Shown here in pieces: positions 4,858 to 63,962 of a stretch of 64,000 bases of DNA. Each line of letters begins with the position of its first letter. Position 1 is the stretch's first letter. The notes beneath the pieces are model-generated. The model was given only the letters and a program-made list of their open reading frames with translations. It did not search any database and had not been told where the DNA came from. This DNA is from Candidatus Omnitrophota bacterium (GTDB lineage: Bacteria; Omnitrophota; Gorgyraeia; Gygaellales; Profunditerraquicolaceae): NCBI GenBank assembly GCA_011620275.1, contig WOZK01000030.1:70242-134241 (forward strand), in the 5' to 3' direction. A program made the position numbers and the translations under genes.

Positions 4858-5664
4858 TTAAGGAATAATAAAAGCCAATATTCTGTGCCCAAACAGGAAC
4901 GAAAATATAGCTGCCAGAGAAAGAAACGGCCCGTAAGGAATTACGTGGCTCTTCTTGAAAACCAGATTAATGATACCCGCGATCGCACCCGGAAACGGAG
5001 CAAGAAAGAAAGTCATCACCGCCTTGTCCGGCCCCAGGAATGCCCCGATCATCGCCATCAATTTCACGTCTCCCATGCCCATAGAAGAAGTCTCTCCTTC
5101 CACCGGGGGGTTCTTCAGGATGCGGAAATATACCAGGTCGAACAAAGCCCCGGCCGCGTAGATGATGCCTGCCCCGGCCGCTGCGCCCAAGAGGCTGCGA
5201 AGAACAGGATGCCAATCAAAGATTACCGGCTGCGGCCTTATACCGGATAAAACGTTCAACAGCAGCGCGGCCGCGGTTCCTCCTATTGATATTTCGTCCG
5301 GGATGATCTGATACTGTATGTCCACGAAAGTCGCTACGCAAAGCAAAGAAAAGAACAGACAATAATATACCGCCTGGGCCTGTGCACCGTAAATCGCCCC
5401 CATAAGCAGAAAAAAAGAGCCGGTAATGAATTCCACCAGCGGGTAACGCAGGGATATCGGTTTGCCGCAATGCCGACATCGGCCTTTCAAGATAAAAAAA
5501 CTCAACAAAGGGATATTATCGAACCAGACGATGTCTTTGGAACAGGACGGACAGTGCGAACGGGGAAAAACGATCGATTGGTTCAACGGCATTCTGTGGA
5601 TGCAGACGTTCAGGAAACTGCCGACAATGGCGCCGAAAACGAAGAAAATCAGCGGGATGATCAT
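4858..5664 (-). CDS. pilD: Prepilin peptidase (type IV leader peptidase/N-methyltransferase, A24 family).
   Basis: 'GSFLNVCIHRMP', the tetra-Cys box 'CPSCSKDI...RCRHCGKPISLRYPLVE', and multiple TM helices with catalytic Asp positions typical of PilD. Confidence 0.85.
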   Translation of the reverse strand: MIIPLIFFVFGAIVGSFLNVCIHRMPLNQSIVFPRSHCPSCSKDIVWFDNIPLLSFFILKGRCRHCGKPISLRYPLVEFITGSFFLLMGAIYGAQAQAVYYCLFFSLLCVATFVDIQYQIIPDEISIGGTAAALLLNVLSGIRPQPVIFDWHPVLRSLLGAAAGAGIIYAAGALFDLVYFRILKNPPVEGETSSMGMGDVKLMAMIGAFLGPDKAVMTFFLAPFPGAIAGIINLVFKKSHVIPYGPFLSLAAIFSFLFGHRILAFIIP

Positions 5665-8101: not shown

Positions 8102-8181
8102 GTTATACGCAACAGCATACTGTTACGATCGCGAATTAAGTATCGTGTCCCCGAAGAATAGTAACCGTTATCCTGCCTTTT

Positions 8182-9187: not shown

Positions 9188-9691
9188 TTATGCTGTTTTT
9201 GACTTTGGCGTGAGGTCTCCGGTCGCCATCGCGATCTTGCCCGCCCGCACCAGTTCTTTTATGTTGAAACGTTTTGCCTCTTCCAGCGTCTTCTTCAGTT
9301 TTTCCTGATCCCCGACTATCTCGACTATCGCCGTATTTCCCCGGCAATGAGTGACTCCCGCTCCCCATTTCTTCGCCAGCGACTCCAGCGCCGCCTTGTC
9401 TCCGGCGGTACAGGACACCTTGATCATCATCAACTCCCGGTCTATGTAATCCTTCTTGGTGAAATCGGTGACCGTGATAACGTCTATCAGTTTGTTCAAC
9501 TGCTTCTTGACCTGTTCGAGTACCTTCTCGTCCCTGGTATCCACCACCATCGTAAGATACGATATGCTGGGGTCGAGGGTCTCGCTGACGGAAAGCGAAA
9601 TAATGTTGTATCCGCGGGCGCTGAACAACCCGGCAATCCTCGCCAGCACTCCGAATTTGTTTTCCACCAGTATAGATATCGTGTGCCTCAT
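9188..9691 (-). CDS. ilvN: Acetolactate synthase small (regulatory) subunit.
   Basis: '[33 protein letters not shown]' ACT domain, 167 aa, adjacent to ilvB. Confidence 0.85.
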
Positions 9692-30679: not shown

Positions 30680-31003
30680 TTATCTTGCTTTAGCCCAAAG
30701 GGCCCTCGCCAGACCCATCAATTCTGCTTTCTCCAGCCGGACCCCGGCGCGGCACAATCCGTCCTCGCGGTTCTTCAATGACCAGACGACCTCCGCCCTG
30801 GTATAAAAAGGCTCGGCCTGTTCGGGGATTTGAAGCCATACCTCCAAACGGGAACTAACCGGCAAACTGCTGCGTGAAGTCAATCCCATACCGTTAGCGC
30901 TGATATCGAAGGTTTCTCCACTGCTTTCTTCGCTTGCCGTGGCCTCCAGAAACTTGAGAGGGAACCGCGCCTGCATCCGTTCAAAAACCCTCCTGTCGTC
31001 CAT
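30680..31003 (-). CDS. PilZ-domain protein (putative c-di-GMP receptor).
   Basis: 'RRVFERMQARF' (RxxxR) and 'DISANGMGL' (DxSxxG) PilZ motifs. 107 aa. Confidence 0.6.
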   Translation of the reverse strand: MDDRRVFERMQARFPLKFLEATASEESSGETFDISANGMGLTSRSSLPVSSRLEVWLQIPEQAEPFYTRAEVVWSLKNREDGLCRAGVRLEKAELMGLARALWAKAR

Positions 31004-31163: not shown

Positions 31164-34100
31164 TCACAGATAAATATCCGTCATATTGCAAACCCCAGAC
31201 AAACCGATACTTATGAAACTTAATGAAGGCAGTGAAAAAGACATCCCCTGCGTATAGAAAGTGGAACCATTCTCCTCGCCGCGAAAGACTGCGTTGTATT
31301 GTTCAACAGGCCTCCATCCTTGCGCAGAATCCATCCCAGGTTCAAGAAAGCGCGCTGCGTCTTCATCGAATATCCCTACCGCGTCCCTTTCGCTGCACCC
31401 TCCGTCCAACGGGTTAAAAACCTCGGCTAAAACAGCCGGCGTTCTCTTCGGATCAAAATCTTTAATAAGCTCATCATTGCCATTTCTTAACGCTCGGATA
31501 AGCTCTTTATCTACGAATTGCCGGCCAAGAATATACACAACCATCCCGTCGATATCTTTTAATTCCCCTATTTTCCCTTGAGCCTCCATCAACTCGATCA
31601 AAAAGATAAATCCGAGCATCGATTGCGGTTCTCTCCGCGTGCGCAAACGGGTAAAAATATTGATTATCGAAAACATCCTGTCCGCCATATAATACAGGCA
31701 GACAACGTTTTGTATCAAAACAGGTCTGATACAATTCAAAAGAAGCAACCGGATCATACCGATAAACGCCTCCGGCTGGTTGTATCCGGCGCGCTCTGAG
31801 AGATAGAGAAAATCTTTTATTATCCCCTCTTTCTCGGTTTCAGCGAGACTGAATTTACGGGCTATTTTTCCGGCAGCCGCATAATTATCAGGTGATAATG
31901 AAGAAAGGATATTACGCCTGTGGCCGGGATAATCATGCTTAAAAGTGTCGATAGTGCTGTATAATGAAACGGCAATGGAATTTTTTTCTTCGGGAACCGG
32001 CCGATTTTCCGCAAGCACCGCTCCGTCACGATATACAACGGAATTAACCGGCACATAGCGCAGAAAACTCAAATAATCCAGTAAAGTCCTGCCTTTGTTG
32101 TCTCCGGAAAGCGCCTCTTCCGGTAATATTATATGCACCGGCCTGTGCTTATTGAATACGGCATAAACGATAAAGATCCCATAGGCCTTAAATATACAAT
32201 CAAATAATTCTCCTCCTGTCAAAAAGACGGTTATGGGCGTTTCAGCGAAACGCGGACATAATCTATCGGCGGAGCCCCGTATCGCATCGACATCCGTATG
32301 ATAGATAATCCGGGGAATTCTCATACATTCGATTACGCAACCCCAGTCTTTTCCCCACACGTCAAGAGCAGCTATCAATTCATCTTCCGCCGCACGGTGT
32401 GATTCTTTATAATCTGCAACGGTAAATACGCCTATTACCCCTCTTCGCCCGCTTCCTCCATCTGCCACAACCGTGCCGCCGTTAACAACCCGTGCCTTTA
32501 TCATTTCCACGTAAGGCGCAATATCGTTAAGTATCACATCCCCTTGATCGCATTCTCCGCCGTCGCCCTTTTGCCCTTGCCCTTTTTCCGCAAGATTGAA
32601 ACCGGGATGCGTTTTCCTCATCTCAAACGCAACGGTTATGCCGAATTCCCGGGCGATAAAATCTACGTACGGCATGGAGGGTTTTTCCCCCGAATAACTA
32701 AATTTTTTCTTAGCCATAGACACTAATATCTGCCTGTCTAAAACAAGCTTCCCCTTCCTTTTTTCCAAGATTCCTTTCCCACTCCAGAACACGCTTAAAA
32801 TCTTACCGGGAGTGTAGCGGGAATTTGTAAAAACCGATACCGGGATCAGCCTCTTCAGGTATTTCTCATCAAATACAAAAGGCCCTTTTTCCCATTGTTC
32901 CCGTATAATCCTCATTAAAACCGGAATCACATAGTTTTGAGTCGCGGGGAAACTCATGGCTGTATTTTTTGTCAAATCAGGCAAACAATAATAGGTAAAC
33001 ATATCTTTTCCCAGTATTCCGCGCCGCTTTAAAAAATCCTCGAAATTTTTATCAAAAACCCGTAATCCCCATTCACCTACGGAAGAGGTGATCATTCCGG
33101 CGTTAAGCTTATTCAGTTTGTTTTTAATAAAATCGTATTTGCCTTTGGACTTACGGCTGATCTTAAGATATTCCATAACCATTCCCGAAGAAAAAGGATA
33201 TCCCAATTCACCGGATTTTATTCCCGCCAGGATTTCAAGTAAGAAATCCAGCGACCCTCCCGGCAAAACAGACAACTCTTCCCAGAATTTATTTTCAATG
33301 CCCCAAAACCGGCCGTTCTCTATTTCCACAACCGGTATCTTATCCATGCCTTTTAATTCTTCGTATAATCTTATGTCGGCCCGCATCCGGAGCAATTGGC
33401 CATACGTACCGTCAAGCAGGGATTGGTGAAATCTACCGGTAGAAACATATTCGCATAACAGCATTTTATCCGCCTCCAATTGCTTGACTATTTCTGCAAC
33501 TGTTTTCATATCCTCCGCACAACCAAAATGCGAGAGCACATCTTCCCGGGTAAAATCCATCTCCAGGAACATTCCGCATTTTCCCGGGATAATAACCGCG
33601 CTCTGTTCGGCTATCCAGCGTATTACGCTTTCCCGGCATACCGATCCTTTTAAATATGCTTCATCTTCCATTAATTCCCACTCTTTCAATAATTCCCCGA
33701 TAATCCTGATCGTTTTTCCGGACACTTGCCTTGCCGAAAAGTAATTTTTATCCTCCGCGCGCACCGCCGCCAGCATCTCACGCATACGCACGGGAGATCC
33801 GCCGGTTATTTCGAAAATTCTTTTCAAAACATGGGATTCCCGGGCGGATAACGGATGAGACTTTATGCCCGCGATAGTCAACCTTCTCCCGGCATTTTTC
33901 TCTTTAAAGAACTTCATAAAACCGATCAAACGGTTAAACCCGCCGGACCCGCCGGATAAAATCATAGTTTGAAATTTATCCGTAACGGAATACCTCTTTT
34001 CTACAACCCCGCTCCGCTCAAGATTCTCCGCTATCGCCGACACCGCGCTTCGGTCGGCGGGAGTGCGGTTTCCCGGAACAAATTGTTCAAGAATATCTTC

Positions 34101-37100
34101 GATGGTAAATACAGACCTTAACAAAACTTCTGTACCGCCCGAAATTACCACACTGCTTCGCATAACCATCCATTCGATTAAATTCTCTTCACTCAACTCC
34201 TTCTTTGACCGCTCATCAACGGCATCATCCGTAAAACCTCCGGTAACCGCGAATCCGCCGTCACGCTGTCTGACCGCGCGGCTATAATCAATCTGATCGC
34301 ACAGTAATGAATACCGGTCCGATTTTAGAAACAGCAAGAGAGGCTCCTGTCCGCCTTCAGCTCTTATTTCCAGCACAACCGGCCGCGGCCGGTAAAGCGC
34401 CTGAATATCCAACCCGGTAAAATGAATAAGCCAAATATACGCATCGTAACGGTCTGCCATCCTTTTAATGATCCGTGGATACATATCGAGCCCCCGGCAT
34501 ATACGATGCCGCCGGCTTTCTTCGTCCCGGGCTTCTTTTATAAAACGCGTATCAAAGCCGAACTGACTGGTTATCCCGTTGCCTAAACGCGGGACCCTGA
34601 ACCTTCGCAAGGCCCTGTTCCCTCCTTCAGTAAGAACCGGCCTGTATTTATGTATGAAATCTCCCACTCGCGCATCGAAAGAAGAATCTTCCAGGGGGAC
34701 ATCAAGCCCGACCGCTTCTGCCAGATATTCTTTGATGCCCGGATATAATTCCTCGTACCGTTCTTGGGTAATCCCTGCGGCTTGATTAACCGCTTTCCAG
34801 TACCAGAGGAACACCCAATCGGTAATAGTCTTTTGTATATTGATCAAAGCGTTCAACAGCCGCGTGTGATAGGCATGGTCGAAATCGAAAGTAAGCCCAA
34901 AATGCGGATAGACGCGCAATTTCCGCACCAGGGTATCGAGATACAGGGGGAAAGACAAATAAAGATTACTTTGCGCGGAGGCCCCGCACACCGGGCCTTC
35001 AATGAGGATCTTGACGTCCTTACTCACAGACGGATGGTTGTAGATTCGGTGAAACGCCAGCAGCTTATCATCGAAGGACGAATACAACTCGCCCCTTAAT
35101 TCATAAAGCACCACTCCCGCGGGTTTTTCTCTCTGTATGGAAGCAAGAAAAACAGCCAGTTCCCGGCAATAGGATATGTATACGGCAATTTCTTCCGCTG
35201 GAAGCGAAGTTATACTATTAGGAGAATGCACGGAGACACACTCCATGCCGAAATCCTGCCTGATCCCGGCCAAAAGCATCTTCATATTCTCCAGATCATC
35301 AAGCTCCGAAAGAGTTCCTATAAATAATTCGAAAGTGCGAAAATCCAGCCTCCAAAGCCTGCGCGCCTGCTCCAGATTGGCATCCAACGCGCATTTACCG
35401 CTGAATACTACACCTAATTGTCCGGTCCCGCCGTCCTTGTCCTTTTCTTCCCATCCCGCCTTTTCTTCCACCGCTCTTTTATCCCTTTTCCAGGAAACGG
35501 TTTTATATAGCGCATACGCCGCCGCTCCCACGGCCAGTAATATATATTCACATTCCAACATATGTTCACTCCATACCCCGAGATCCTTCACCGCGGAATT
35601 AAGGCTGTAAACCATCAGCAGATATAAATAGCCGTATCCGAACGCCTCTATGGCTCTGTAATATATCTTCTGCCGTTTCTTCTCAATTTCTTCCGGTTCC
35701 CAATTCTTTACCAGCTCCAGCACAAAATACGTAATGACCATACCGGCCGATAAAGCGGCAACCGTCAAGTATGCCCCGTATAATTGCAGAGATACAAAGG
35801 TATTGACCAACAACGCCGGGCCGGAGATCAAAGGAAACGCCAACGGCATAATCCAATAAGGAATACGAGTGAATGCGCAGGGAATGGGAATCTGCGGAGT
35901 GATGTATATGAACAGCAATGTTACGCTTACGATTTTCAGCATTCCCAACGCGGAAGGACTGACAGCCGCTCCGGTATATCCTATAAAGACGTAGAATCCC
36001 CCTATCAAAACCGAAACAAGCAGCGCTCGCCGCACTCCTTCTGTTTTCTGGCCGGCATTCAAGTTCAATCCGCCGGGGCCGGTAATGGCCATAAAAGAGG
36101 CGAGTAACCCGGGATAACTTATAGCCAGGATGTAACCGGCCAGCACGACCACGAAATCCGCCGCATAATCCGCGCCGATAACGGCGAAATAGGGTAAAAA
36201 AGGCGCCCCCGCTATAAACGCCGGAATAAAAAACCCCGTTGCGTGTATCCAGGCCCAGCGCGCGCGAATGCTCACTCTTCCCGCGTACGCGCGCCAGTAC
36301 AGCCTGTCCTTCCAGCCGCCGTCAAGATGTTCTTTCCCGTCCGCATTGGGAATAGGGCCGTTATCTATTAAGAAATGGACGCCGGCTGATGGTAAAGAAT
36401 TTAGCTCGGGCTTAAGGACAGGCGCATTTCTATATACCTTTACCGAAAAAGCAGGCAGCACCATACGCCCATGTTCCCCTGCCCATATTACTTCACTTGT
36501 CGAACCGCATCCCCGAGAAGTAAACCCCGTTAGAGAACTTCGTCCTCTAACGGTTTGCTCTGACGGTGGCATTAAACTACCGTCAGATTGGGAATCGGAA
36601 GACCACCTACTAAAGTCGGTGGCTTTCTCTAACGGGGTAAACATGCCGACACTCTGCAACTCTTCATTCGCATAATCGGTAATTTGGCGATCCGTCGACC
36701 TGATCCGGCTTATATCTACGCACACAATCCGATCCCCGACTTTTCTGTATGCTTCCACCATCGGCAACGTCCAGACGATAATCAACCCGTCTTCTTTAAC
36801 AATCCGCCCAAGCAAGTCAGCAACGTATTTTTTAATATCAAAGTCCCCGGACAAATCCAGCCAGCCGAGGCCTTTTAAGACTAAATAATCGGGCTTCTCA
36901 TCGGTCAAATATCCATTCTCTTTTAATCGCGCCAGTTTTTCTTTAATAACTCCAACTTCTCTCGCATCAACCGCTATATTGATGAATGAATCGAAACAAC
37001 GGATACGTTCATCTCCAGAATTATATTCGCTGTCGAACAGTCCGGAAATACCATTCCTCACGGCCCCTACAGTTTGAGATGCCGCGTCCTTCATTGTCTC

Positions 37101-40100
37101 CGGAGTGATATCATTCCCCCGGGTATCTTCATCGAGATTGACGCTGATAATTATTCCCGTATATGCTTTTTTTCTTGTCGTCAATGCCGCGAAGGGAACA
37201 AAATCGCCTCCGGCCAGAAGATAAATCCCGGTTTTCTTTTCTAAACCGAATTCTGCCACGACTCTTTCCCACAAATATAAATATTGGGTCCAAGCATCTT
37301 TTTTTGTTGGCCGGGCATTTCCGCCGTCCGTATAGTCAGACTCATCTTCCACGGCTGACGCAAGTCCTTCTGCCAGCATTAAGGCATGTTTCTTAATCTC
37401 GCCCTCCGGTAAATGCGGAAGAGTCGTTATGACTTCGTCCTGAAAACCTTTACGGGCAAAGTGATATGTTTCTTCGGGAACCCCCTCGATAGAAGCGGCA
37501 TTGAGGTCCTGGATCATATTAGGAAAGAAATTTTCGAGGAAGTAACCTCCGGTAACTAAATCCAGATACAACTTGGGCGCAGCCAAAAACTCATATCTCA
37601 GCAGGGAGAAAATCTTCAGCCAATGATAAGATGTCCTTCCTATTTCCAGCGCGTAGGGAATAATCTCCGCGGTCTCATTACCGGCTGTGCCGCGGCACAA
37701 CTCGCTCATAATTTTGGCCTGGACATACGGCCACGAATTCAAAGCTGTGAACTCATCACGGCGCATATCCGCCTCCGGCCACTGTCTGCACAAAAGCTGT
37801 TGAAGCGCGGCGTCTGCCGCGTCACTGCCTGTCTGCTCGCCGAACGGCAGTTGTCCATCCGAATCAATCCTTCGACGCAATTCATAACAATGACCGGGCC
37901 TGAAAACGGCTCCGTGTATATCCACCAATATCCGGACATTCCCTGCCGTATTTAGACCAAACGCTGCCGCTGCAGGCTGAATACCGGGTCCGCCGCGAGC
38001 GGTCCAATAATCCGGAATTATTGTTTTATCCGAGAACAAAACTTCTCCCCGGACATTTTCTCTCCGCACATTGCTGTCGGTTACCGACAAGGTTTGAATG
38101 ATCCGATGCAGACTCAAGAAAGGCATATTCACGATAAGCTTACCCTCATACATTACCGCGGACTGCCTGAACATAAGTAACCTGTCTGATTCCAGAGGTT
38201 TTTTCTGCAGAAGCGCGAGAAATCGCGGCATATCGAATGTGCTACCTGCGCGCTTTTCCTGAACGCCGGATTCATTCAATAACGCGAAAATTTCGCGGAA
38301 CATCTCCCGGAACTCATCCCAAATATCCGAAGAAACAGTCAATATTTCTTCCGGGCCGGAAACAGCCGAACGTACTTCCTGATCAATCCGCGCGTTAATA
38401 CGCCGTGTCTCGTGCAGAATATCCTCGATTCCACGAAGCGAATCATCACTTCCACCGTCTTTTTCATCCGGATGCATCGCCATCCAGAAATCGACGAACA
38501 AGTGTTTCCGTAGATGATCAATGGTATGGGGATTGCTAATACGCAAATATGAAAGGAGGAATACGGCAGTGCCGACGGGCAGTGCGGAAGCTCTGCTTCT
38601 CGGGGGGCCGGTTTTACTCTCTAGGTAAAGTCCGAATAAGGCCACGGCTAAAATACCGGTTTTGTTCCGCAGGGCACTCCCGGCAGCAATATAATCTTTC
38701 AATTTCTCGAACTCAGCCGCTGATTCAGGCCGGCTCTCTCGGACGAAACGCGAAAAATCATCCGCGCTCAAACCTCCCGGATTCCCCTGGGGGATAACCG
38801 CGTCTATTCTGCGCGCGCATTCCTCAACAGCCCCGCCGTCTGAAGCCGAATCTTCCTTCACTTTTTTTTCTTCCTTTTCCATTGAATTCACATTCCTGAT
38901 CCGTTCGGAATCTTTTAAAACACTCCTCTTTATTCCTTCATATAACACTTCCCGCAGCCGTTTAACGATTGCGTCTATGAAAGGCGCATTACCATATATA
39001 TCCATAGCCCGCTCGGGATAACCGCTTAATCCCGTTTTAACATTTCTGTTGCCTCCGTCGCCGAAAGTTCTCTTTTCTTCATCCCCGATAAACGGATAGT
39101 CCCACTCTTGCACAAGTGAGCTGTTTATACGCTCTACAATAATACTTCCGGACAAATCAACATTGACTTTCAGCAAACCGTTCAACGCGAAACTAAAATA
39201 TCCCCGGTCTTCATTGCAAAACACAGGGTCTTCATAAACCGCAGATATCACATCATGCAAAAAGCCGGCGTATGTTTCTTGCTGTTGCTCCGATGTACGC
39301 GAAGAAATATGCTCGAGAGATTCGAGAAACCGCTCTCTCTGATAAGAAGCTGCGGGCTTATATCCTTTCTCCTGCAGCTCCGCTTTCACCAGATTATCCG
39401 CACGTAATAGGACGACCAACAGTGTATTGATTATATACTCCAGATCTTCCAGGTCCCTGATGTCCACCGCGGAAAGTCGATTATGTAACACCTCATATAA
39501 TCCACGCGGAATCACCACGGTTACTTCTCTACTCATATCCGGCGTATATCCCTCCTGAAGATTTTCAAGATAGAACCTCCTCTTTGTAAGTATCCGCCAC
39601 AAGCCTTCGTGCTGCTGAAATTCCGCTATGATATTCTCCCAATAGGGATAAACGAAAATTGAAAGATCGCCTCTATAGGAAAGGCCTGTAAGTATAGGAA
39701 AAAACACAATGAGACCTATGGCCATTTCTAAAGGCGTTCCCAACCGGATCAAATATAACCCTATAATCGAATGCATGAACGAAGGCAGAAGAACGGCAAA
39801 CATATCTTTGGCAAGATTTTCCGCGGGCAAACCGCATGTTGACATAATATGATAACAAGAAGCCTGTGCTTGGAGTCCAAGCAAATCATCCTTCTTCCTT
39901 TGGGGAACCGTTGAACTGCGTACAAGTGTTTCAAAATCACCGCGAAATATGAGTTTTTCACCGGCGGGATCAATAAAAAATACGTTCCACCATTCTTCAT
40001 CCCCCGCTATTTCCAAAACCTTTGCTCTATCGACAGCGAGCAAAGCATTCCTGGATTTGAACAGGGATGGGAATAACCTCTCCAATGCCCCTCCTCCCTC

Positions 40101-43100
40101 ATAGCGCGATACGACAATCCGCAGCCGCCTTTGGCCAAATAGTGTCCCGGCGCAATAATGAATAATCTCATGCCCTATACCTATGCCCCAGAATAAAGGT
40201 ATTGCGGCCGCAAGAAACAGCATGACCGATCCCCCTAATCCCAGGCCCCAATGAGCGCTCAGAGAAAAACCCGGTAGCAAACCGGATACGAACCATCCCC
40301 CCGCAATAATCGCAAAAAGCGCCAACCGGGAATAATTGAATGATATCTGCCGCGCGCCCGCGAAATAAAACTTGCGCATAAAGTGATGTGGCCTGGAAAT
40401 CGCTCTATCCCCCGGGTTATCGGCATACGGCCTGCCGCCGTCGCCGTTCTGTGCGCGAGGATATCCTTTCAGCGAGGACATTATATGGTTTGCCAATGTT
40501 TTGCGTTCCCAGAAATTTGGGCTTCTACGGTCGGCTTGCTCATGTTTCAGAATCACCGGCAGAACAATCCGGATATTCTTGCCCGTCGGATCGACATCCA
40601 GAGATCCCATACCGAACTTAAAAAACAGGTAAGTATATTTATTTGTTGGTCTGCTATCTACGGGCTTGCCCGCCGCGTAAGCATCAGCGAGACAAGTTTC
40701 GCCATGGAAGCTTTCGGCGGCGAGGCTCGCGGCTATATTCAGGCGTATATAATCAAGCGGATGCGCTAAAATATGCTCAAGAGCCTCGCCGTCTCCACGG
40801 CTTATCCCGATCAAATCATCGATGATTTCTCTTTTGGAGTCGTCCGAAATACGCGAGAAGATTTCTTCTCCTGAACACCATTGGATCTTATAGTGTGTCG
40901 ACGCCTCACCCCATTTCTCGCTGTATTTTTTTATCCGGCTCAGATAAACAAAGAACCTGCCTACTATTTCTTCTCTGCCGCTGAGAAACAATACTCTCGT
41001 CTGATCGTCATCCCCGCCTTCAGGGCCTAAGCTATCAAAAAACATCAATTCCTTGAATAACGCATCCCCACCCCATTCCTCGTCATTCCACTGCTCTTCA
41101 AGCCAGTTCTCCAGCTCTTGAAGGATAGACGAATAGTTAATAGGGAAATCCCCGTCACACAAATATTCACCCTCATTGATAATCCTGTTTTTCCCTCCGT
41201 CCGGATTATTAAGCCGCCGCTCTTCGCGTCCCACGCCAGACATCCCCCCGGACTTTTCTGCCACCATTGTCAGGATACGCGCAAGCTTTGCCGCCTGCTC
41301 GCTATCACCTTTCTCTATCAATTCCAGGATCCGCTTTTCAAATCTTTTGGCAATAAATCTTATGTCATCGTCCGGCAAAGAATAGAATTCCCCGAATCTG
41401 CAAATAGCGTCTAAAATAACGGTGTTATCCGAACCCAGCAGGAACGGAAATAGCGCCCGTACTTCCCTCCCCTCCAGATAAAGCAGATCGCGCGGCCTGC
41501 GGTCCTGCATGATCAGCAGGCTTACTTCATGGGATAGATCATTCACTCTTATCCAGGTGTCCTCAGCAGGTTCACGCCGCAGTTCTATAAGAGAATCTAT
41601 AAGTTCAAGGAACAATCCGGACAATTTCTGCTCCCATTCAGCCCCGCCGTCAAACAATTCCTCTGCCCTTTCCAGACGCGCCGTCTTTAGCGCCCTTATT
41701 ACCGTCTCGGCCTCCCCGGCTATCGCCGATATTTCATTGTCGAAGTAGAGCTCATCCGCCTGTCCGCAGGAAGCCGCGGCTCTTTCTATGGAATCAACTC
41801 CCTGCGGACGCAGAAGCTCCATTTTGAGAATAAGACCTATCTTCTTCTCCCAAGATAGGCCTGCTGTCGAACCAAGAAACCGGCGACATTTCATCCGCCC
41901 CTGCGGCGCTCTCAAAGGTGTGTTGCCTTCGAGTAGATCATACACGTCTTTTTCATACGCTTCCGCGGAAACGCTTAAAAGATCATAGGTGAACTGTTCC
42001 AACGCCCCCTCCCCGAATTCTTCCGCCGATCTACGGTTGAATCTGCTGTACGGCGTCATCAAATGCTCTCCCTGTTTGCGCAAGAGGATACCGCGAAGTT
42101 CATAGTCGCGTCCCCATGCGGAATAGATCGCTATCTTCGGCGGCCAATCCACCCAGGAAACATGCCCGGATATGAAAGAAGCAAAGGAACCAAGATAACT
42201 GTCCGCGGCGATATGCCTGGAATTTATGCCGTCAAGGTAGTATTCATATGAAAACCGGCTGCGGGAAGAAATCAGATGAACGATATGGGCGTTCTGCAGC
42301 GGCAATGTCTGTAAAAGACTATGAATTTCAGCGACGCAGAAAGAAGAGTCGTCGATATAATACAATGCGGGCGGGGCGCGCGAAGAATACAACTCTGCGG
42401 CCAGCATTTTCGCCTTCTTCCCTTCGCCATAACCGCAGAAACGGATATTTCCCTCCGGAATATCAATGCCGGCGCTCTTTAATACCGCGAGAGTCCCCGC
42501 TTTCGTGCTTTCATCACGGCCGGTCAGAACGACAATTCTCAAGCCAAGGCGTTCAGCCGTCTTTAGAAGATGATCCGCCCCTTCCGTCATCCGGTAAATA
42601 CCCAGGCGCACTCCCAATCTCTCTACATCAGTATATTCTTTCATGGCTACGCTTTTGAGCCAATCCACCTGTTCCTGCATCCAGATCCCGAACTCTTCCG
42701 GCTCTTTGATCTCCCCGGAGCTGTATATATTGTTCTGTATGCTGTCCTTGATCATATAATACCGCCTGCGTATAAAATCCGACGAAGGGTAATCCAGTGT
42801 CGTCCGGAGCAAAGTGTCGTCCAGGTCCACGATAAGCACCCCGCCGCTTACAGCAGTCCTCTCCATATTGCCGGCCGCTTCAAAAAGGCTCCCGGTGGAA
42901 AAACTAACCGGGCCTGCCCCCCCGTCATTTTCGCACGAGCGAATACTTGGCCTTCCGATAGGCCAAGGTAAAATCCGACACTCCGCGGAATAATCTGCTC
43001 CGCGTTTTTGCGCGTAGGCCGGCAGATTATTTATGCTCCTTAGATAACCGATCATACCGGAAAGAATAGCGGCCTCCCTGGTGTCGTAGTTTTCTAACGT

Positions 43101-52100: not shown

Positions 52101-55100
52101 AATATTGCAGGGAATCGCCCAATGCAGCTCTCTCACAGGCGCGTCTTTCCGCAACAGTTCCTTGACATAGGAGGAACTGACATTTGTATAAACATACGGC
52201 ACCAAGAATACTGTCGGTATCGAAGGAGCCAGTAAAAGGTTGGCCCAGGCAAGCGGAAGTTCGCTCTTTAGATCCTTATAGTCCCTGACCCCGCGCCGAA
52301 ACACCCCCGCGCCAAAACTGCGCGCGCAATCAACCGTCAATCCGTCGTAACAAATAACCTTTACATTAGTAATCCCGGCGGTTTTCAGGCAAAATTCGAT
52401 CATCGCTTTGTTCTCCTGCCGCGAAAACCACTGCTTCCCCTCCTTATCCGGGTTGGGACCGATACCGATGTAAACAGTATCGAACATCGCCACCGCCCTG
52501 CGCACTACTTCCAGGTGCCCGTTGGTGAAAGTATCGGCAGACCGGGAATCGTCCTTAAAATACCCCGGATACACGGCAATTATGCCTTTGCCTGTTGCAT
52601 CGCGAATGGGTTCCCGGGAAAACCGTAACGTTCCAGATGTGGATAGCGAAGACTGCCGTTCCCCGCCGTCACGGCTATTTTTGCGCAAACTGCCGGCCGC
52701 TTCTCTTTTAGCGGAAAGACGATGATGGAAAACCTTGAACCATCCGCGGTGTTCCTTTAGGAAATTATACGCCGCACTCAACGCTTCCTGAAAACTCAAA
52801 TCATTTTCGATGCCCGGGTAAATTATACGGTCTTTTAGACACTCCATAGTCTTTGCCGGAGAATATCCTTCCTGATCAAGCCGCATACAGAGTTTCGCTA
52901 ATAGAACAAGATTATCCTGGTACAAACTAACATCCCCTTTTGAAAAGCGCGCGGCCAAAGGAACTCCGATCTCCAGCACTTTACATATATGGAATATTCC
53001 GGCGTCCAGTAATCGCTCCCCCATATCAACGGCAGGTTTGACCCATTCGCCGTTGTATCCCTCTAAGGCCGCGAGCATCTTTGGCAGGGCTCTTTCACAT
53101 AGATAGTTAATGCTTATTCTTAAGGTCTGCGCTTTTTCAATCAATCCGCTTATTGGCGAAGTCGGAGGAATAACAGAGATTCGTTCGGTGGTTTCCCCGC
53201 CGTCTTTTTGGGCCTTTTCCTGTTCCTGCCTACTCACCTCTGGAAGAATACGCCTGCGTATCTTTAAGAGGTATTTTTTCTGACACGGAACCCCAGCCTT
53301 CCGTACTGCCTTATACAAATCATCGCCATTCAAGTCGCCTTTCTTCTCGATCACGTCTAATATTATTTTCTTAAGCAAATAATCTCTCGCTTTACAACAC
53401 AAATCCTTCCAATCCTTAAACCAGTCGTTACGGCATTTATGAAAAGCAATTTTAATTTTCGGGTCGTGTTTAAATACTTCTGTTTTAGAAATGGGACTTG
53501 CCTTTCTACTTGGCCCTCTCTGAGCGCGAATTTGTTCTAACGCGGCGTTAACCCTTTGAAATAATTCTTCTTGAGTCTTTATATCCTGATAAATATCCTC
53601 TTCATTAGTTATTTGCAATATAAACAACCGGAACCGGCAGTCTAAACGATATTTTCCTCCATATGGAGCAGGCGACAACAACTTTTCTCCTCCGCAATCA
53701 AGCTTGCCTACCAGCCTGCTGAAGAATTTGTTATTCATTAAAATGTAGGAAAGCTTCCCGTTCCACCTTTTAACTTTGGCCACGTAGATCTTCTCATTTG
53801 GTTTGGTGTTATGCGCGACAGCTGTCAACACCTCCCGTTCATCTTGCGATAGCCCGTTCCAGAGCGGCATGAACATCTCAGAATCTACCGTTTGCTCTGC
53901 CTCATGCGTTCCGCCGTCAAGAACATCCATACTCCCTTTTTCCACACCGGCCGGAAAATCAGGCTTACCATCCGCTCTATACTTCCGTATCTTCATCTTT
54001 GATATCTGGCCGATGTACAAAAGATACAGGCCGGACAACAGTTCCCGGAGTATAGGATCCATGAAAGACTCCGGCGTGTAACCGCGGGAAAGAGCCACGG
54101 TTATTACATATGGCTTTACCTTTTTCTCTTCCAGAATCTTACAGATTCCTCGGATCTGCTTTCGTAATATCCCCAATATGCCCTCTATCTCCGCTTCTTG
54201 CTTGTCTTCAATCGGGCTTATATTTTTATCCCAGAAGTAATCGGCGTCGAAATCGAGGATCACCGGTTTGCGGTTCAGGCTGAAATCCGGCAGTTCATCC
54301 GTATAAACCTTGTGCACTTTTATTCTACGCACCGCGCCTACCGTTATATCCCATCCTGTATTTTCTCTGAAATCCATCACCCAACTTCCTTCTTCCAAAG
54401 GATGAACCGGCCGGAAATAAATCACAGGATGCGTTCCGGTGCCATTTTTAACCGTCAGGTCAGCAACATACATATCGATCTCCTTCCGCTCACTGATAAG
54501 AAAATTGGCGAAATAACGATAGCTGTTGACGGGTTTGAATATGGGCGAGACATCGGGATTCCAATAAAGATATTTTCTTCGACCATCACGCATATACTCC
54601 GGCAATACCCAGTATATCTCATCGACATATCCATCATATACGGCCGGGGATATAAATTGATCAAAGGCGGGGCGTCTCCGGGCGACGGCCTTGATACTTC
54701 GAGACAACGGGTAAAAATCCCAAATGTCGCACATATCCTGATGCGTGTCAAAATGTATCAAAACAGCAGGATTGGTAATACGCTTCAGGAGCCTGCCGAT
54801 CTCCCAAGATGAAAACGCGTCCCCATGGTTTTCCATAAGAAACATCCGCGGAGCCTTGGAAGGACCTTGAACCTCAAAAATGCTATCCCTCCCTGCTTGC
54901 AAAATCGTTTTTACTAAAGAGGACCGGCTAAAGCTCTCCCTGCCGCCGCGTATAGTGTCTCTTACGGCCGAATCTACCGCTTCTGTACTTACCATCCCCT
55001 TTTTTAAAGAAGCATCTCTTGGAGTCACTAATTTCCCTTTGCCGCCGTCCTGTTCACGGGCATAACCACGGTAATTCTGCACAGCAGCCGCTCCGCCTTC

Positions 55101-58100
55101 TTTTTCCAGAATGTTAAGCATATTTTCGAAAGAAGAAACACCCATTATTTCCCGTATTCTCCGCAACCGTTGTAAATACAAACCCCTTTCGCTTCCGCTC
55201 TCATCCGCTGCCAGCCGCAATAACAATGTTCCCGCCTTCTTTGTGTTGCAATAACATCCGGCGAACCAGCTTCGGAATGCACCCTCATCATCCGTCATTC
55301 TTATTTTCCTGTCTGGAGACAATGGTTTGAACCCGAAAGCTTCCCTTATTCGGCACATCTCAGCGATATCAATCATTGACCAAACCAGAGGAAAAGGGAA
55401 TTTTTGCAGCAGGCCGGTTCCCTGTTTTGAGAACAAATAAGCGATATTAACAGCGGCCAAATGAGGATTATTTTCCGCGATTAAGCGATTCCTGTCCTTT
55501 TCATTCAACCGGCAGCAGCCGCTTTTTTCCAGGTAATTGATCAATACTGCATTCATAATGCCGTCTAAAGATACCCGTCTAAAACCCCAGACGGGTAACT
55601 TACTCCACGTATCGCCGACCAAATCGGACAATTCGTTGGAAGAGAATAAAGCGAACACATCCGGGAAAATATCCGGCAGATGTGCCGGAGGAATGCTGGA
55701 ACCGACGCTCACCGAAGTTTGCCGGGTCATACTCTTTTCCGCTCCTGTCAAAAACGCTTTCAAAAATGATTTATTTGAGCGCACGGCGCGGAAAAACTCT
55801 TTATGCGGGCCGCAATCACCGAATAGAGCAAGCAGTGAATAAAACAAAACCGTTATACTAAAGTCAAACAGCCGTATTTCTTTATTCTTGCCGCTGATCC
55901 CGGTCAAAACGGCAAGCTGTTTCAAATCAAATAACGCCTCATGCAACTCTATATTAGAGGTGGAGTGCTGATCGTAAGTACGGGAGAGATATGTTGTGGA
56001 CGTACCCGAATCTCTAAAAAGAGGGGTGCGGATACCGGGGGTAACATATATTGCACAATCCGGCGGGGTATTGGGAAGCAAAGATATGGCAAAAAGAAAC
56101 TTTTGTTCAATCCCGGGATTACTGCGGCTTGCCGGCATATCCAACTGCCCGCCGGCAATCTTACCGGCGCGATACGTAAACCTTCTCTCCCAAAAACGGC
56201 TATTGCTGAATATAAGAGGAAAGACTTTCTCCCCTCCGTCTCTGCCCGGATTTTTCGCATCCTTCGGAGAACGTCTTGTTACCTTACACCCGTATTGGAC
56301 CACAATAACGGTAATTTGGGCAGACGTCTTTTCAAAAGGCAATCCGGACAAGATTCTTTCCGCTAATGATACCGCCTCTAGATCAACAATCCCTTTTCCG
56401 TTTACATATCTTTCGAATGCCAACAGGTATTCGCCCAGGGCTTCCGCGTTGGTGTTCTTTTTTCTGCTTCTATCAGTCAAGATGGCATCTATTCCCGGCA
56501 TATAATTCATCAAAGACAACCGATGAATAAACGTATCCCAAGCGGTATCCTTTTCTATAATACGCCGCATTTCCTCGGAGAATTTGGCGCGCAGAAAGTG
56601 GAGTAGCCCTTCTCCTAACTTCTTGTTGAGATACGCCAGATCACAGCGTTGTGCGCTTAACGCCTGCCGGAAAAGAGGCAGCCAAAAACCGTAGAATTCC
56701 GAGTCTTCTCCGGACAATCTGAATAACTTTCTCTCATCGAAAACCCAGGCTTGTTCCGTTCCATTGACGACAGTATATCCTTTGTCAGACAGTTCTTTTG
56801 CTTTTGTCGGCGGGACCTCCGTCACTATTCTGTCGATATATTCAAACTTGCCGCTATTTAATTGTGAAAGTAACTCTTTCTGATTAACGATACACATATT
56901 GCCTTTTGTTGAATATCCGACTCCCAGACCCTTCAGGGACGTAAGCAATTTTTGCGAACTGCGCAATTTTAAATCAGCATCCCCGCCGTCATTTTTACGG
57001 TTATTCCGCGCGCCGGTTGCTCCCATTTCTTCGAGAACGCGTTGAAAAGAAGGGTTTTCTTTCCTTAAACTCAATTCCCCGGCTTCCACAAAACCCCTGA
57101 ATGAGCCTTCAGCAGCTACTTCCCTCATTATTCTTTGCAGTTCAATCAACTCACGCTGCAAATCCGATGCCGTTTGCCCGGAGAAAAAACCCAACACCAC
57201 TTTTAGATTCTCTAAAGTGGGGGGTATACGATAACCGGCAAATAGGCCGGCTAACGGATGCTGAACAAGAACACCCGGTTGCAGCTTGTTGAACGTTTCT
57301 TTTGGTCCATAAGGCAGTGAATACGATAACGTGATCAGATATTCAGAGATTAATCCTACATCGGCGGCATTCCACACCGCTTCCCAGATACGCACTTCTT
57401 TATCATCTAAAACTGCCTGTATTCGATCAATCCCTCTATGAACGGAACGTAAAGAATTCAAATGAAAAAGAGCTGATTTGAATGCGCGCATCCTAATTTG
57501 CATATTTATCTTTTCATCAAGTTCTTTCCTGAACGAAATAAAGTTCTCTTGATCGAAACTCGGTGTTTCTGTCTCGACTAACCCCGTGCCGCAAGATACC
57601 GGAAAAATCCCTTCGTCATTTTCACACTGGTAAAGACCTGCCTCTCCTCTAAGGCAGGGTGTTATTCCACTAGGCCCTGGTAAAATCCAGCGCTCTGTGG
57701 GATAGTCTGCGCTCCTTTCATCGCCAACGCCCGCGTGAACATGCGCCGGGCGTTTACGGGATTTCCCTGATTTTACGGAAGCGGGACACTCATTACGCCG
57801 GGAGTTTTTCTTCCACTCGTTGTATTTCTGTGTCAGTAAATCATCGTAGTATTTACCGCCGGGATTAGTCAGTTTTTTCACCCAGGCGTAAAAGGCGTCA
57901 TACGTGATCCTTTTTCCATTAGACCGCAGAAGTTCGAATCCTTTATGGGGGTTATAATCGCTCTTTTTAAGCGCTGAAACAACTTCTTCAGCGGTCAATC
58001 TGTTTTTGTTGTAATCACCGGCGAACTTCTTGTCGTATCCAGGCTCCCCCGGTGTGGTCAACCTGTAAACCACTGTGTCCATCACGCCGCGGCTTACCAA

Positions 58101-61100
58101 CTTGCCATTGGAACACAAATGCCTCAAGGCTGCATTTGTACGGAAACCATTCTCCCGCATCGCTTTTTTTATGTCCTCCCGCGAGGCCTTACCGGCCGGC
58201 ATATTCTTGATACCCTGTACAGGCACAGATACCTTTTTGCCTGGATCCCCGGATTTCTTAAGATGATCTCCGAATAATCCGAATTCCTTTTCCTTAGCAC
58301 GGAATTCCGCGCTTTTCTTGCGTAATCTTCGCACCCTCGTTTTGAAAGTATTCAGCTTGACCACATATCCTTCCTTTTGAAGCAAAGCGAGAGCGCGACT
58401 ACCGTGAAAATTAGTTCTCTCCATGCAATCAAGGATAACTTCATCCGGGACTCTGTCGGCATAGAACTTCTCTTTAACAGCAGCTTTGTGACGTTCGATG
58501 ACTTCTAAATACTTGGGGTCTTTCCTCAACTGCCGATAATGATGTTCACTGATCCCCAGACGCTTAATTGCCGATTCTATAACGCCTCCGGCATCCGCAA
58601 GCGCCTGGTCAAGCTCTTGCGGGGAAGGGCTGATAGAAGGAGGATAAACTCTTTTATTCCTATCCCTGCCGATAATAAAATAGTACCCTTTACCTTCTCT
58701 GTCAGAAACAGGACTGCCTTCTTTATCCTTGATAATCCGGACTGCTCTTACTCTGCCATCTTTGATCACCACCTCGGCCTCTGCTTGAGGAAATCGAGAG
58801 AAAGTTTTCCATGTGCGGTTGCCCACATAGACTGCTCCGGAAGGAGGCAATATGAAATTCTTTAACGTATGGTCCTGCAATTTACTTAATTCTTTTCCGG
58901 ACAAATGGAACCGTTTCCCCTCCATCGCACTTGTCGCATTATTCCAGACCTCAAACGGGACAGACATCTTATACCGCCCGTCCCCGCCGTCATTGTTAAG
59001 AACTTTTTGTATAATCTTCCCCAGAAAAGCGGCGTCTCTTGCCGCAACCCTCTTAATATTCTCAGGGGTAGATTCATATTCAAGGATAAATACTTCCGAA
59101 AAACCGCGTTCTTTAATCAATATTTTCAATACTTCTTCCAGCGCGCCATTCAACGAAAGGGCCTTATATAAAGGAAGATGGATTTCTTTTGTCATCTGAT
59201 TAAGGAAATCGCTTCCATGAGCGTGAACTACCGCTATGGGAATATCCGTATCAAGTTCACGCAGAAATTTATCAGGAGCGCCTTGCGGAGAAGCCAAAGC
59301 ATGTCCCAAATCCAGCGTCATCCCCAGATGTTTTTTCTCCCGGGAGCTTAAAATCCCGGATAAAGACGCGAATGTCGAATTCATATCAGCCGCGCTATGC
59401 CAGTCCGCGTTTAGCTTTATTGGGATCTGATGGACATTTTCTATGCTCAAAACAACCTTTTCCCTTTCAGCTAACCGGACCAAAGGAAGAACACTGTCGG
59501 TGAATAGTTTTCCCGGAGTAGTCAAATGCATAGTAACCGCGCGCGCGCCGACTCGTGAAGCAAATTCAATTGTCTCCCGAATCGCCCGCGTATTTGCCTG
59601 TTCTTTAACAATATCGACATGCGGGGCGTGACAGGTCAAATAAACCGCGTTTTCTTCCGATGCCGCCTTTAGCGCGTCAACCGTGCTTGGACTGACAGAA
59701 GAAGGCCTGTATCCCGAAAACGCTATTTCAAGGCTGTTCAAATTTCCCCCGATCTCATTAACGGCTTTCAGCAAAGGAATAATGCCGCTGGCATCAGCGC
59801 CTTTCCAATAAGACGGTCCGGTTTTAAGCTCATATCCGCCGTCTTCTTTATCTCCTTCACCTGCCTGTTCACAAGGTTTATTCCCAAGCATAAGGTGCGC
59901 TGTAATCATAATAACATCTTCATCCGCCGGCTCATCCACCGGGCTGATTTCAATATAGAACTCACCTTCTCCAATCTCCTCCGGAGAGCAAGATTCCGTA
60001 TATCCGGCTTGCCGGAAGGCATTCAATATTTCCTGATATGCCGGCTCAACACCGCCAAACGCTTCCGCATGGACAACGAAGGTAATAGCGTTGGATAATT
60101 CCGATTTTCCTACACTGGATAATGCCGCTCTTCTGAGAATAAGCAGGCTGGAGGCCAGGTATTCATCAATCCCCAGATACCAGTTGCTTTCATCCGGCAT
60201 TACCACTGAAGGAATATTAAACAGCCACTGCAGCTCTCCGACCGGAATCTCAACCGGCACTTCGGTGATCACGCCTTTTTCATCGATCTCAATCCATTTA
60301 TTTCCATTCTCATAGTCTCGATCCGGAAAATCCTCTCTGCGGTGCGGCCCTATGGACTGCTCGGAGTATAAAGCACAAAGGATCACTGCCCAGGAGAAAT
60401 CGAGTTTATTGCGCAGTTCCAGAGCCTTTCTGGTTGTCAAGGTCATCTCCGAAATTTTTTCCCGCATCTCCTCTACCGCCCTCTTTGCTTCTGTCAGGCC
60501 TTCTTTATTCCTGGTCAACCACACATTTTTCTGCATTATTTCTCCCATCCGCCTATCCATCGCTTCAACATCAGACAGTTCTTCTCCCGGAGAAACACGG
60601 TATAATACTTCAGGAATAGCTATACCCGCCAAAGAAAGCTCTTCTTTTCCAAAAACATACTCCTTCATCGCCATAGCCGCGTTAAAAGCCATCTGTAAAA
60701 GCTCGGATAAGGAATTACTCGCCATGCGCTCTGCGCCATGAAGCCCGGTATATGCCGATTCTCCCAAAACAAACAGCCGTTTGAGCAAAGATCTGCCGGA
60801 TTTGTTCACGGGCGCGCCTCCTATGGTATAATGTGCCGCCGGCGCAATCCTGATCAAGTGTTCGGCCTCGTTAAAATTCTTGTCGCGCTTTTTAATCTCT
60901 TCATAGAGATTACCGAAATGCTCCTTAAAATCTTCCATATCGGGTATAAATAGGTAAACATATGGCTTGCCCGACTTCTCCATTTCCTGCAATATCGCCA
61001 GAGAAACCACATAACGTTCCGCCATTTCCAGCTTAGGGTCGTATTTATGCATGAAAAAGACCGGATTTCCGTCCTCATCAGGCTCAAGAACACAAAGCCG

Positions 61101-63962: not shown

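Follow-up and report, generated by a model that had tools for sequence, protein, structure and literature searches.

Some viral polyproteins are cut at Gly-Gly-X sites by cysteine proteases that are papain-like or belong to clan CE, as is known for pp220 and pp62 of African swine fever virus (ASFV), processed by pS273R, for the adenovirus protease and for the papain-like proteases of nidoviruses. MARTX toxins are effector arrays that are freed by an internal cysteine protease domain, with cleavage after Leu, and are reshuffled between strains. Double-glycine leaders follow the consensus LSxxELxxIxGG with conserved hydrophobic positions, while LapG, a bacterial transglutaminase-like cysteine proteinase regulated by cyclic di-GMP (c-di-GMP) in other bacteria, cuts giant adhesins in the periplasm once, at a di-alanine site. 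Giant open reading frames (ORFs) are common in Omnitrophota; both their conservation and their annotation have been described as poor (PMC10066038). West-Roberts et al. 2023 suspected cleavage of such giants by C39 or S8 peptidases at unknown points, asked whether they yield one chain or many products, and noted that the unknown cleavage points prevent splitting for structure prediction (bioRxiv 10.1101/2023.11.21.568195). Here we analyzed one giant ORF in a stretch of 64,000 nucleotides (nt) from a Candidatus Omnitrophota genome (assembly GCA_011620275.1, contig WOZK01000030.1, positions 70,242 to 134,241; hereafter the window). The tripeptide Asp-Gly-Gly (DGG) recurs 37 times in its product, where it is conserved, under selection, and joins autonomous modules to one another.

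The ORF spans 31164..63962 on the minus strand (32,799 nt) and encodes 10,932 amino acids without an in-frame stop. As a single ORF of more than 20 kb in an Omnitrophota genome, it carries both defining features of the giants of this phylum, and it shares with those described previously (bioRxiv 10.1101/2023.11.21.568195; PMC10066038) the very long frame, a few divergent enzyme domains, transmembrane-like segments, poor conservation and suspected processing. However, Archaeovorin-type giants exceed 30,000 residues (genes over 90 kb), a length that the present protein does not reach, and none of their characteristic domains (glycosyl transferases and hydrolases, methyltransferases, C39 and S8 peptidases, NUDIX and SecA-like domains) was detected here. 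The only Pfam domains found in the giant protein were FAD_binding_2/Succ_DH_flav_C, AP_endonuc_2, UPF0489, CTP_transf_like and a weak match to HAD.

An earlier sequence-only reading of this DNA had reported 37 DGG tripeptides at given positions, seven of them preceded by Lys, and a roughly 10-fold enrichment. Our recount reproduced every position (Table 1) and the seven KDGG; the single DNGG, however, lies at residue 5920 and not at 5919. Given the composition of the protein (5.74% Asp, 8.17% Gly), 4.18 DGG are expected (Poisson P ~1e-22). Shuffled chains, which by that reading's own criterion would have refuted it by reaching such a count, never came near it: 2000 residue shuffles averaged 4.2 DGG with a maximum of 11, and 300 first-order Markov simulations, which keep the dipeptide frequencies, averaged 7.9 with a maximum of 20. 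DGG heads the tripeptide ranking of the protein both in frequency and in enrichment, the runner-up having P ~3e-5. The excess is confined to the giant, as the other 21 minus-strand genes in the window contain two DGG against three expected. Another tripeptide, NPG, is also enriched in the giant protein (eight against 1.4 expected, P ~1e-4) and sometimes lies near junctions (KNPGRDGG, residue 2575).

Gly/Asp-rich composition, calcium-binding repeats of the RTX or dockerin type, or recent duplications might in principle produce such a pattern. The shuffles and simulations fail widely to do so, no RTX, dockerin or TSP3 match was found with Pfam, and no conserved sequence surrounds the motif. Comparing the giant protein with itself revealed only a few short and weak similarities (161-341 with 342-517 at 28% identity; around 9920 with 10105; 6026-6081 with 8472-8518), so that internal repeats were rejected as the source of the excess. 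We consider an artefact of this kind effectively refuted.

The 37 sites divide the protein into approximately 38 modules with a mean spacing of ~295 residues, about as long as a typical bacterial protein; pairs of DGG 13-46 residues apart are common. A strongly hydrophilic stretch of 12 residues precedes DGG, with a mean Kyte-Doolittle hydropathy of -0.96 against -0.27 overall (37 sites; no value this low in 5000 random samplings) and 63% polar residues against 52%, whereas after DGG only about three residues are polar. DGG is thus the last element of a linker, with the next unit beginning at once. Beyond this general hydrophilicity no positional conservation was found before DGG, only D-G-G itself being conserved. 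The sole junctions with a common extended linker are those at 6060 and 8502, where MAMHPDEK precedes DGG (residues 6052-6062 and 8494-8504; nt ~45777-45809 and 38451-38483).

The segments between consecutive DGG correspond to whole proteins where they could be assigned. The placement of a NadB domain between DGG 518 and 1374 and of a TIM barrel between 1374 and 1658, as proposed from the sequence, holds. The TIM-barrel module covers positions 4-246 of the 249 in the Pfam profile AP_endonuc_2 and aligns with chain residues 42-269 of the 293 in MJ1311. For the CoaD module, a phmmer search of PDB sequences gave E 5e-22 with chain residues 6-157 of 159 aligned, in addition to the Pfam match CTP_transf_like. 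Transmembrane-like segments occur in modules 4212-4319, 7841-8302 and 9214-9510. The N-terminal units 161-341 and 342-517 (window 62403-63482, minus strand) are in tandem and 28% identical; the segment from 518 to ~667 starts with DGGDKIDIV (compare DGGEKIDIQ) and may represent a third such unit, which continues into the NadB-like domain without a DGG.

The module between DGG 6060 and 6420 gives the closest view of a single unit. A profile search run exhaustively against 1.84 billion representative proteins returned 12 matches, six of which are free-standing proteins of 315-365 residues whose initiator Met and C-termini coincide in the alignment with the two DGG of the module. An AlphaFold2 model built from 12 sequences reached a predicted local distance difference test (pLDDT) of 79.7 and a predicted template modeling score (pTM) of 0.80, with confidence below 50 only at residues 1-6, in an internal loop (158-196) and at residues 355-363. 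Both DGG therefore lie in disordered termini of this well-modeled unit rather than in a folded core, where they would have spoken against the sequence-only reading. The termini of the free-standing homologues together with the disorder at the DGG ends of the model indicate that the DGG-to-DGG unit is one complete protein.

Within the 12 aligned sequences Cys6119 (C60 of the module) and His6158 (H99) are invariant, while Asp6178 (D119) is Asp in most and Glu in two. In the model, helix 60-73 begins at the Cys, strand 95-106 contains His99, and strand 109-114 is followed by Asp119. Fold matches belong throughout to the papain/transglutaminase-like superfamily (Foldseek probability 0.99 for SseI) and include proteases (LapG, vasohibin, C39), deamidases (SseI, protein-glutaminase) and acetyltransferases. 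Profile searches of this module against PDB sequences and Pfam returned only noise. The modeled Cys-His-Asp fold is compatible with a cysteine peptidase without being proof of it, as the superfamily also holds deamidases and acyltransferases. The only HExxH sequence in the giant protein, HEIIH (residues 7931-7935, nt 40158-40172), lies in the membrane module 7841-8302.

The contig L004, from a metagenome-assembled genome (MAG), is the closest genomic relative (87% identity) and is labelled Candidatus Omnitrophota, as are the proteins P0002 and P0014. The relatives are all rich in DGG, with a similar excess of about 10-fold: 18 against 1.8 expected in the single open frame of L004 over 14.9 kb, ten against 1.2 in P0001 (3481 residues, encoded on the JGI metagenome contig L003), ten against 0.7 in P0002 (2039 residues, from an NCBI Omnitrophota MAG) and nine against 0.56 in P0013 (1604 residues, JGI). 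Two further contigs, L001 and L002 (Logan SRR10568503), were excluded as independent support because they are 100% identical to the window (L001 corresponds to 19094-40272). No homologues of residues 1-4999 were found in a set of 5.8 billion proteins, and two scans of metagenome_contigs and one of viral_contigs likewise returned no homologues. Public annotations call the entire 1600-2100-residue fragments P0002, P0013 and P0014 "pantetheine-phosphate adenylyltransferase, partial".

In the collinear blocks shared with L004 (82% identity overall), all 11 orthologous DGG are kept, including those whose preceding 12 residues show only 8-33% identity or carry insertions or deletions. P0014 is more distant, with 28% identity in one module and 38% in CoaD, and its modules are ordered differently; DGG nevertheless stands at its counterparts of 5459, 6060 and 3979. 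Homologues could have lacked the motif at matching junctions; instead they retain it there. A short site that recurs at junctions and is conserved among relatives is one mark of a polyprotein; units that are complete, autonomous proteins are another, shown here for four modules.

Comparison of these genomes further revealed that P0001 and L004 are mosaics of the modules of the giant in another order, with homology that starts and stops at DGG. Eight of the 11 homology breakpoints relative to L004 fall within 10 residues of a DGG, whereas such windows cover 7% by chance (P ~9e-8). For instance, in both P0001 and L004 the module ending at DGG 6602 is fused to the module that follows DGG 8375, and the 108-residue unit 5351-5459 is replaced by a 330-residue paralogue of module 6060-6420. 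L004 also contains an insertion of 1860 residues exactly at DGG 6060, with a DGG on both sides. The junction "...SKHNG..SSGA[KQ]DGG" leads into three different modules, one in the giant, one in L004, P0001 and P0002, and one in P0013. At the small end of the scale, P0013 is without exactly the 30-residue unit from DGG 4589 to NGG 4619, the latter reading DGG in L004. Alignment of these proteins thus shows that modules were gained, lost and reordered, mostly at DGG junctions. On L003 (6409-15117), three copies of a module matching residues 6420-7013 of the giant occur within 16 kb, some of them frame-shifted and split into ORFs; these copies may stem from ongoing duplication and decay or, alternatively, from errors in the assembly.

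Three further large proteins (P0004, P0006 and P0007) carry a homologue of module 6060-6420, and two of them are punctuated differently. P0006 (2737 residues) has no DGG at all but contains ASSP seven times against 0.05 expected, and the two adjoining ORFs of its contig L007 (71-12845; P0006 and the overlapping next ORF) together have 16 SSP against 1.0 expected. In P0004, ASP[IV] is the top enriched motif. The sequences VSSPV in P0006 and AVSPV in P0004 stand 22-27 residues before a conserved KYG motif, which is the place taken by DGG in the giant and by Met in the free-standing proteins. Such lineage-specific punctuation, DGG in one and (A/S)SP in the other, is as expected if site and enzyme co-evolve. 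No enriched junction motif was found in P0007 (6732 residues, GC-rich), in which the Cys-His-Asp domain, with a CGDC motif, occurs twice (residues ~3477-3630 and 5399-5669). A JAMM-like HTHP...S..D pattern was noticed by eye at ~1780-1810 of P0006, in the unit between ASSPA 1696 and ASSPA 1869, with no Pfam match of any kind in P0006; if real, it might mark another possible junction peptidase for that lineage.

The conservation of DGG could reflect a peptide or the nucleic acid that encodes it. Asp at the DGG sites is encoded by GAC in 34 of 37 cases, although GAT outnumbers GAC in the ORF as a whole (413 against 214). The corresponding motif GACGGNGG occurs 35 times in the coding strand of the ORF, 34 of them in frame 0, and is rare elsewhere in the window (three in the other 31 kb of the same strand, one on the plus strand). 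However, Asp before any other Gly codon also prefers GAC (24 GAC, ten GAT), which leaves a marginal GAC excess at DGG, with a Fisher P of 0.03. The preference is therefore largely a context effect. Across the giant ORF, GAC makes up 71% of Asp codons before Gly and 28% otherwise, GATGG being apparently avoided; neighboring genes use GAT and GAC equally, whereas the giant ORF prefers GAT. The G+C content of the ORF (~0.44-0.50) lies below that of the flanking housekeeping genes (~0.51-0.55).

Other nucleotide-level controls point the same way. Gly codon usage within DGG matches that of X-Gly-Gly elsewhere, and 32 of 36 DGG codons are identical between the giant and L004, which equals the background for conserved Asp (94%) and Gly (77%) codons. 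Only eight nucleotides are conserved, with neither flanking conservation nor inverted repeats within 36 nt on either side of DGG. Taken together, the varying wobble positions, the background level of codon conservation, the context effect on GAC, the unconserved flanks and the lack of start-codon enrichment described below lead us to conclude that DGG is selected mainly as a peptide in this lineage. Owing to the GAC context, Gly wobble and codon-conservation controls, a nucleotide motif as the main signal was downgraded to a minority rival.

According to that rival, the primary signal is DNA: GACGGNGG would be the crossover site for recombination or slippage of in-frame cassettes, and DGG merely its translation. 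The breakpoints, the insertion and the exact unit deletion all lie at the motif, and the three module copies on L003 could be counted for it as well; yet eight nucleotides are very short for a specific recombinase site, and neither the extended, structured or inverted-repeat sites of integron- or shufflon-type cassette systems nor a linked recombinase were found within the window, no recombinase gene being present in the 31 kb outside the ORF (the upstream side of the ORF lies beyond the window). Retention of the motif at 28% protein identity would, for a pure DNA signal, need independent selection. In the L007 lineage, on the other hand, the ASSPA junction corresponds in the DNA to an almost fixed 15-mer, GCCAGCTCGCCGGCG: ten of the 16 SSP use AGC-TCG where Ser codons are otherwise even, and none of 19 other Ser-Ser pairs does so. 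This fixed 15-mer keeps a DNA-level mechanism in play, although we regard DNA as the primary signal as distinctly improbable.

We also considered a signal in RNA or translation, with GGNGG acting as a Shine-Dalgarno-like pause at domain boundaries that aids folding, or as a start for internal translation of every module. The motif is strictly in frame on the coding strand, and GGAGG is found at ten junctions, whereas the more frequent GGCGG (22 of 37) and the four GGGGG would pair poorly with the CCUCC anti-Shine-Dalgarno. Start codons 4-13 nt downstream of DGG are not enriched (four of 37, where 23% are expected), and junctions of the ASSP type have no Shine-Dalgarno character. Neither internal translation starts nor pausing is supported by these counts, and an explanation in such terms is very improbable.

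Selection of DGG as a peptide leaves two main ways in which it might act. We propose that it is the recognition and cleavage site of a Gly-Gly-type peptidase and that the ORF is a polyprotein-like array, a proposal on which our judgement is evenly divided. The product would be a chain of ~38 autonomous modules, among them CoaD, a NadB-like flavoprotein, a TIM-barrel enzyme, membrane modules and many modules of unknown function. Every module would close in a hydrophilic linker terminating at DGG, with the next fold only a few residues on, and a Gly-Gly-type endopeptidase would cut at DGG and thereby free the modules, comparable to cutting at Gly-Gly-X in certain viral polyproteins and at the double-glycine sites of C39 peptidases. 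Candidates for this enzyme inside the protein itself are the Cys-His-Asp module 6060-6420 and the membrane HExxH module 7841-8302. Recombination or slippage between junctions would lead to gain, loss and reordering of modules; as the junctions are in frame and the modules self-contained, recombined proteins would remain viable, which would explain why related genomes differ in modules at DGG.

Alternatively, DGG might be an uncleaved hinge (a flexible linker end, a helix stop or a turn) in a giant that works as a single chain, tethering enzymes and membrane modules in one assembly. DGG does lie in hydrophilic and disordered linker ends, and Gly-rich linkers are common; linkers seldom need an exact tripeptide, however, and DGG is kept amid diverged or length-variable linkers, down to 28% identity. 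The DGG at residue 20, with no domain before it, would join nothing and suits a removable leader, and the frequent closely spaced pairs are likewise not expected of hinges. In another lineage this place is taken by the chemically unrelated (A/S)SP, which fits a recognition site more readily than a physical hinge. Moreover, CoaD is normally hexameric, and such a hexamer would be hard to assemble inside a chain of 11,000 residues, which favors cleavage. A hinge would in turn agree with the poor N-termini that many residues after DGG would make, with the failure to detect a known Gly-Gly peptidase family, and with published work, which treats Omnitrophota giants as membrane-anchored single entities. 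On balance we consider an uncleaved hinge rather unlikely. Of the functions suggested by the sequence-only reading (linker, processing site or turn), module punctuation is supported, be it as a cleaved polyprotein or as a hinge.

Several observations weigh against cleavage. We infer both the cut itself and the identity of the protease. Pfam scans of the whole ORF at E up to 5 revealed no peptidase family, be it C39, Ulp/SENP, JAMM or another one specific for Gly-Gly. If the shared module also acted as the protease in P0004 and P0006, it would need a wholly different specificity there (SSP, not DGG). The residue after DGG is Arg, Lys, Tyr, Phe or Trp at 13 of 37 sites; in the bacterial N-degron pathway these are destabilizing N-termini, which a cut directly after Gly-Gly would expose. 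Some boundaries are without DGG, such as that of the third tandem unit near residue 667 and the Metallophos/ROK boundary in P0014, and some insertions or deletions between relatives are not at DGG (internal deletions in P0002 and L004). Structure prediction covered one module, 6060-6420.

If the polyprotein-like array is nevertheless taken as a working model, its nearest functional analogues would be the viral Gly-Gly-X polyproteins and the MARTX toxins, although membership of either group is excluded by the tests. With the viral polyproteins it would have in common many proteins per chain, a recurring Gly-Gly site, a protease (here a candidate) inside the chain and sites that vary between lineages. 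In contrast, this is a cellular chromosomal gene among housekeeping genes, with ~38 units that include metabolic enzymes, with no homology to the viral proteases detected, and with proposed cleavage. MARTX toxins resemble it as giant modular proteins with strain-variable modules that arise through boundary recombination and with an internal cysteine protease, which is proposed here; however, glycine-rich RTX repeats, an inositol-phosphate-activated CPD domain, secretion signals and a secretion apparatus were not found, and the modules resemble ordinary cellular enzymes. The double-glycine leaders cut by C39 domains of PCAT/ABC exporters differ by their hydrophobic leader pattern, which is absent before DGG, and Pfam detected no C39 in the ORF. 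LapG has no sequence-level match here, and its one di-alanine cut contrasts with dozens of DGG sites.

A more far-reaching proposal is that dozens of independent genes, housekeeping CoaD included, are expressed as an in-frame "polyprotein operon" that is cut at a lineage-specific motif, with the junction DNA doubling as an integron-like cassette crossover; this combination is tentative and, in our opinion, somewhat doubtful. DGG, linkers and junction motifs go unmentioned both in bioRxiv 10.1101/2023.11.21.568195 and in a 2026 preprint that covers complete Omnitrophota genomes; a wider search returned no natural bacterial counterpart and no description of the motif in the literature searched. 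Punctuation by DGG, (A/S)SP in the same role and the exchange of modules at junctions are absent from the published accounts of Omnitrophota giants.

Table 1. Junctions and assigned modules of the giant ORF, and two neighboring genes (window positions; residues of the giant protein)
Feature	Residues	Window position	Strand	Sequence	Remark
DGG	20	63897..63905	-	GACGGAGGC	preceded by 19 residues only; leader-like
DGG	161	63474..63482	-	GACGGGGGG	opens first tandem paralogous unit
DGG	342	62931..62939	-	GACGGAGGA	opens second paralogous unit (DGGEKIDIQ)
DGG	518	62403..62411	-	GACGGAGGC	opens NadB-like module (DGGDKIDIV)
DGG	1374	59835..59843	-	GACGGCGGA	opens TIM-barrel module
DGG	1658	58983..58991	-	GACGGCGGG	closes TIM-barrel module
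DGG	2325	56982..56990	-	GACGGCGGG	
DGG	2575	56232..56240	-	GACGGAGGG	
DGG	2972	55041..55049	-	GACGGCGGC	opens module containing UPF0489
DGG	3349	53910..53918	-	GACGGCGGA	
DGG	3587	53196..53204	-	GACGGCGGG	
DGG	3765	52662..52670	-	GACGGCGGG	opens CoaD module; kept in P0002
DGG	3979	52020..52028	-	GACGGCGGC	closes CoaD module; kept in L004, P0002, P0013; equivalent place in P0014 (38% identity)
DGG	4212	51321..51329	-	GACGGAGGT	opens module with three transmembrane-like segments; conserved in L004, P0002, P0013
DGG	4319	51000..51008	-	GACGGGGGT	kept in relatives
DGG	4346	50919..50927	-	GATGGGGGG	kept despite insertion or deletion in preceding linker
DGG	4589	50190..50198	-	GACGGCGGA	unit from here to NGG 4619 absent from P0013
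DGG	4635	50052..50060	-	GATGGAGGG	kept in relatives
DGG	5351	47904..47912	-	GACGGCGGC	three different modules come next in different genomes
DGG	5459	47580..47588	-	GACGGCGGG	homology breakpoint; retained in P0014 (28% identity)
DGG	6060	45777..45785	-	GACGGCGGC	opens Cys-His-Asp module; site of DGG-bounded 1860-residue insertion in L004
DGG	6420	44697..44705	-	GACGGCGGC	closes Cys-His-Asp module; aligned with C-termini of free-standing homologues
DGG	6602	44151..44159	-	GACGGCGGA	in P0001 and L004, preceding module joined to module after DGG 8375 instead
DGG	7013	42918..42926	-	GACGGGGGG	opens module with weak HAD match
DGG	7438	41643..41651	-	GACGGCGGG	
DGG	7588	41193..41201	-	GACGGAGGG	
DGG	7841	40434..40442	-	GACGGCGGC	opens membrane HExxH module; kept in P0002
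DGG	8302	39051..39059	-	GACGGAGGC	
DGG	8375	38832..38840	-	GACGGCGGG	homology breakpoint relative to P0001 and L004
DGG	8502	38451..38459	-	GACGGTGGA	MAMHPDEK directly before, as at 6060
DGG	8879	37320..37328	-	GACGGCGGA	
DGG	9214	36315..36323	-	GACGGCGGC	opens module with about six transmembrane-like segments
DGG	9510	35427..35435	-	GACGGCGGG	
DGG	9901	34254..34262	-	GACGGCGGA	
DGG	10467	32556..32564	-	GACGGCGGA	
DGG	10501	32454..32462	-	GATGGAGGA	
DGG	10853	31398..31406	-	GACGGAGGG	final junction; followed by 79-residue tail
NadB-like module	518-1376	59835..62411	-		L-aspartate oxidase/SdhA-like flavoprotein, ~667-1222, with ~150-residue extension at each end
TIM-barrel module	1374-1660	58983..59843	-		complete xylose-isomerase-like TIM barrel, ~1401-1647
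CoaD module	3765-3981	52020..52670	-		complete phosphopantetheine adenylyltransferase; linkers of ~30 and ~20 residues
Cys-His-Asp module	6060-6422	44697..45785	-		papain/transglutaminase-like N-terminal domain; candidate junction peptidase
HExxH module	7841-8304	39051..40442	-		hydrophobic transmembrane-like segments; second candidate peptidase; no Pfam match
PilZ-domain gene		30680..31003	-		directly downstream of giant ORF
Prepilin peptidase gene		4858..5664			

Among the neighboring genes in the window, the one encoding a PilZ (c-di-GMP-binding) domain has a counterpart directly downstream of the giant genes in L007 (12896-13561); with respect to LapG, this adjacency is an observation only. 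The ABC transporter encoded nearby (26950..28740) was rejected as a C39-bearing exporter, as it is without C39 and begins directly with its membrane domain. The prepilin peptidase (4858..5664) was considered as a junction enzyme on account of its G|F..E site and set aside. The phosphoglycerate kinase ORF (730-3111, minus strand) encodes 793 residues, about twice the usual size, with the kinase domain at residues 86-511 and an unannotated C-terminal half.

These results address a question open in the field, namely whether Omnitrophota giants are megadalton chains or cut products. The DGG sites provide explicit candidate cut sites and a rule for segmenting giant proteins, for structure prediction among other uses, and they give a rule for finding analogous motifs in other lineages. 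Junction-bounded exchange of modules would explain the poor conservation of these genes. If cleavage at DGG is true, Omnitrophota would use a cellular polyprotein strategy that includes housekeeping enzymes, on a scale known only from viruses.

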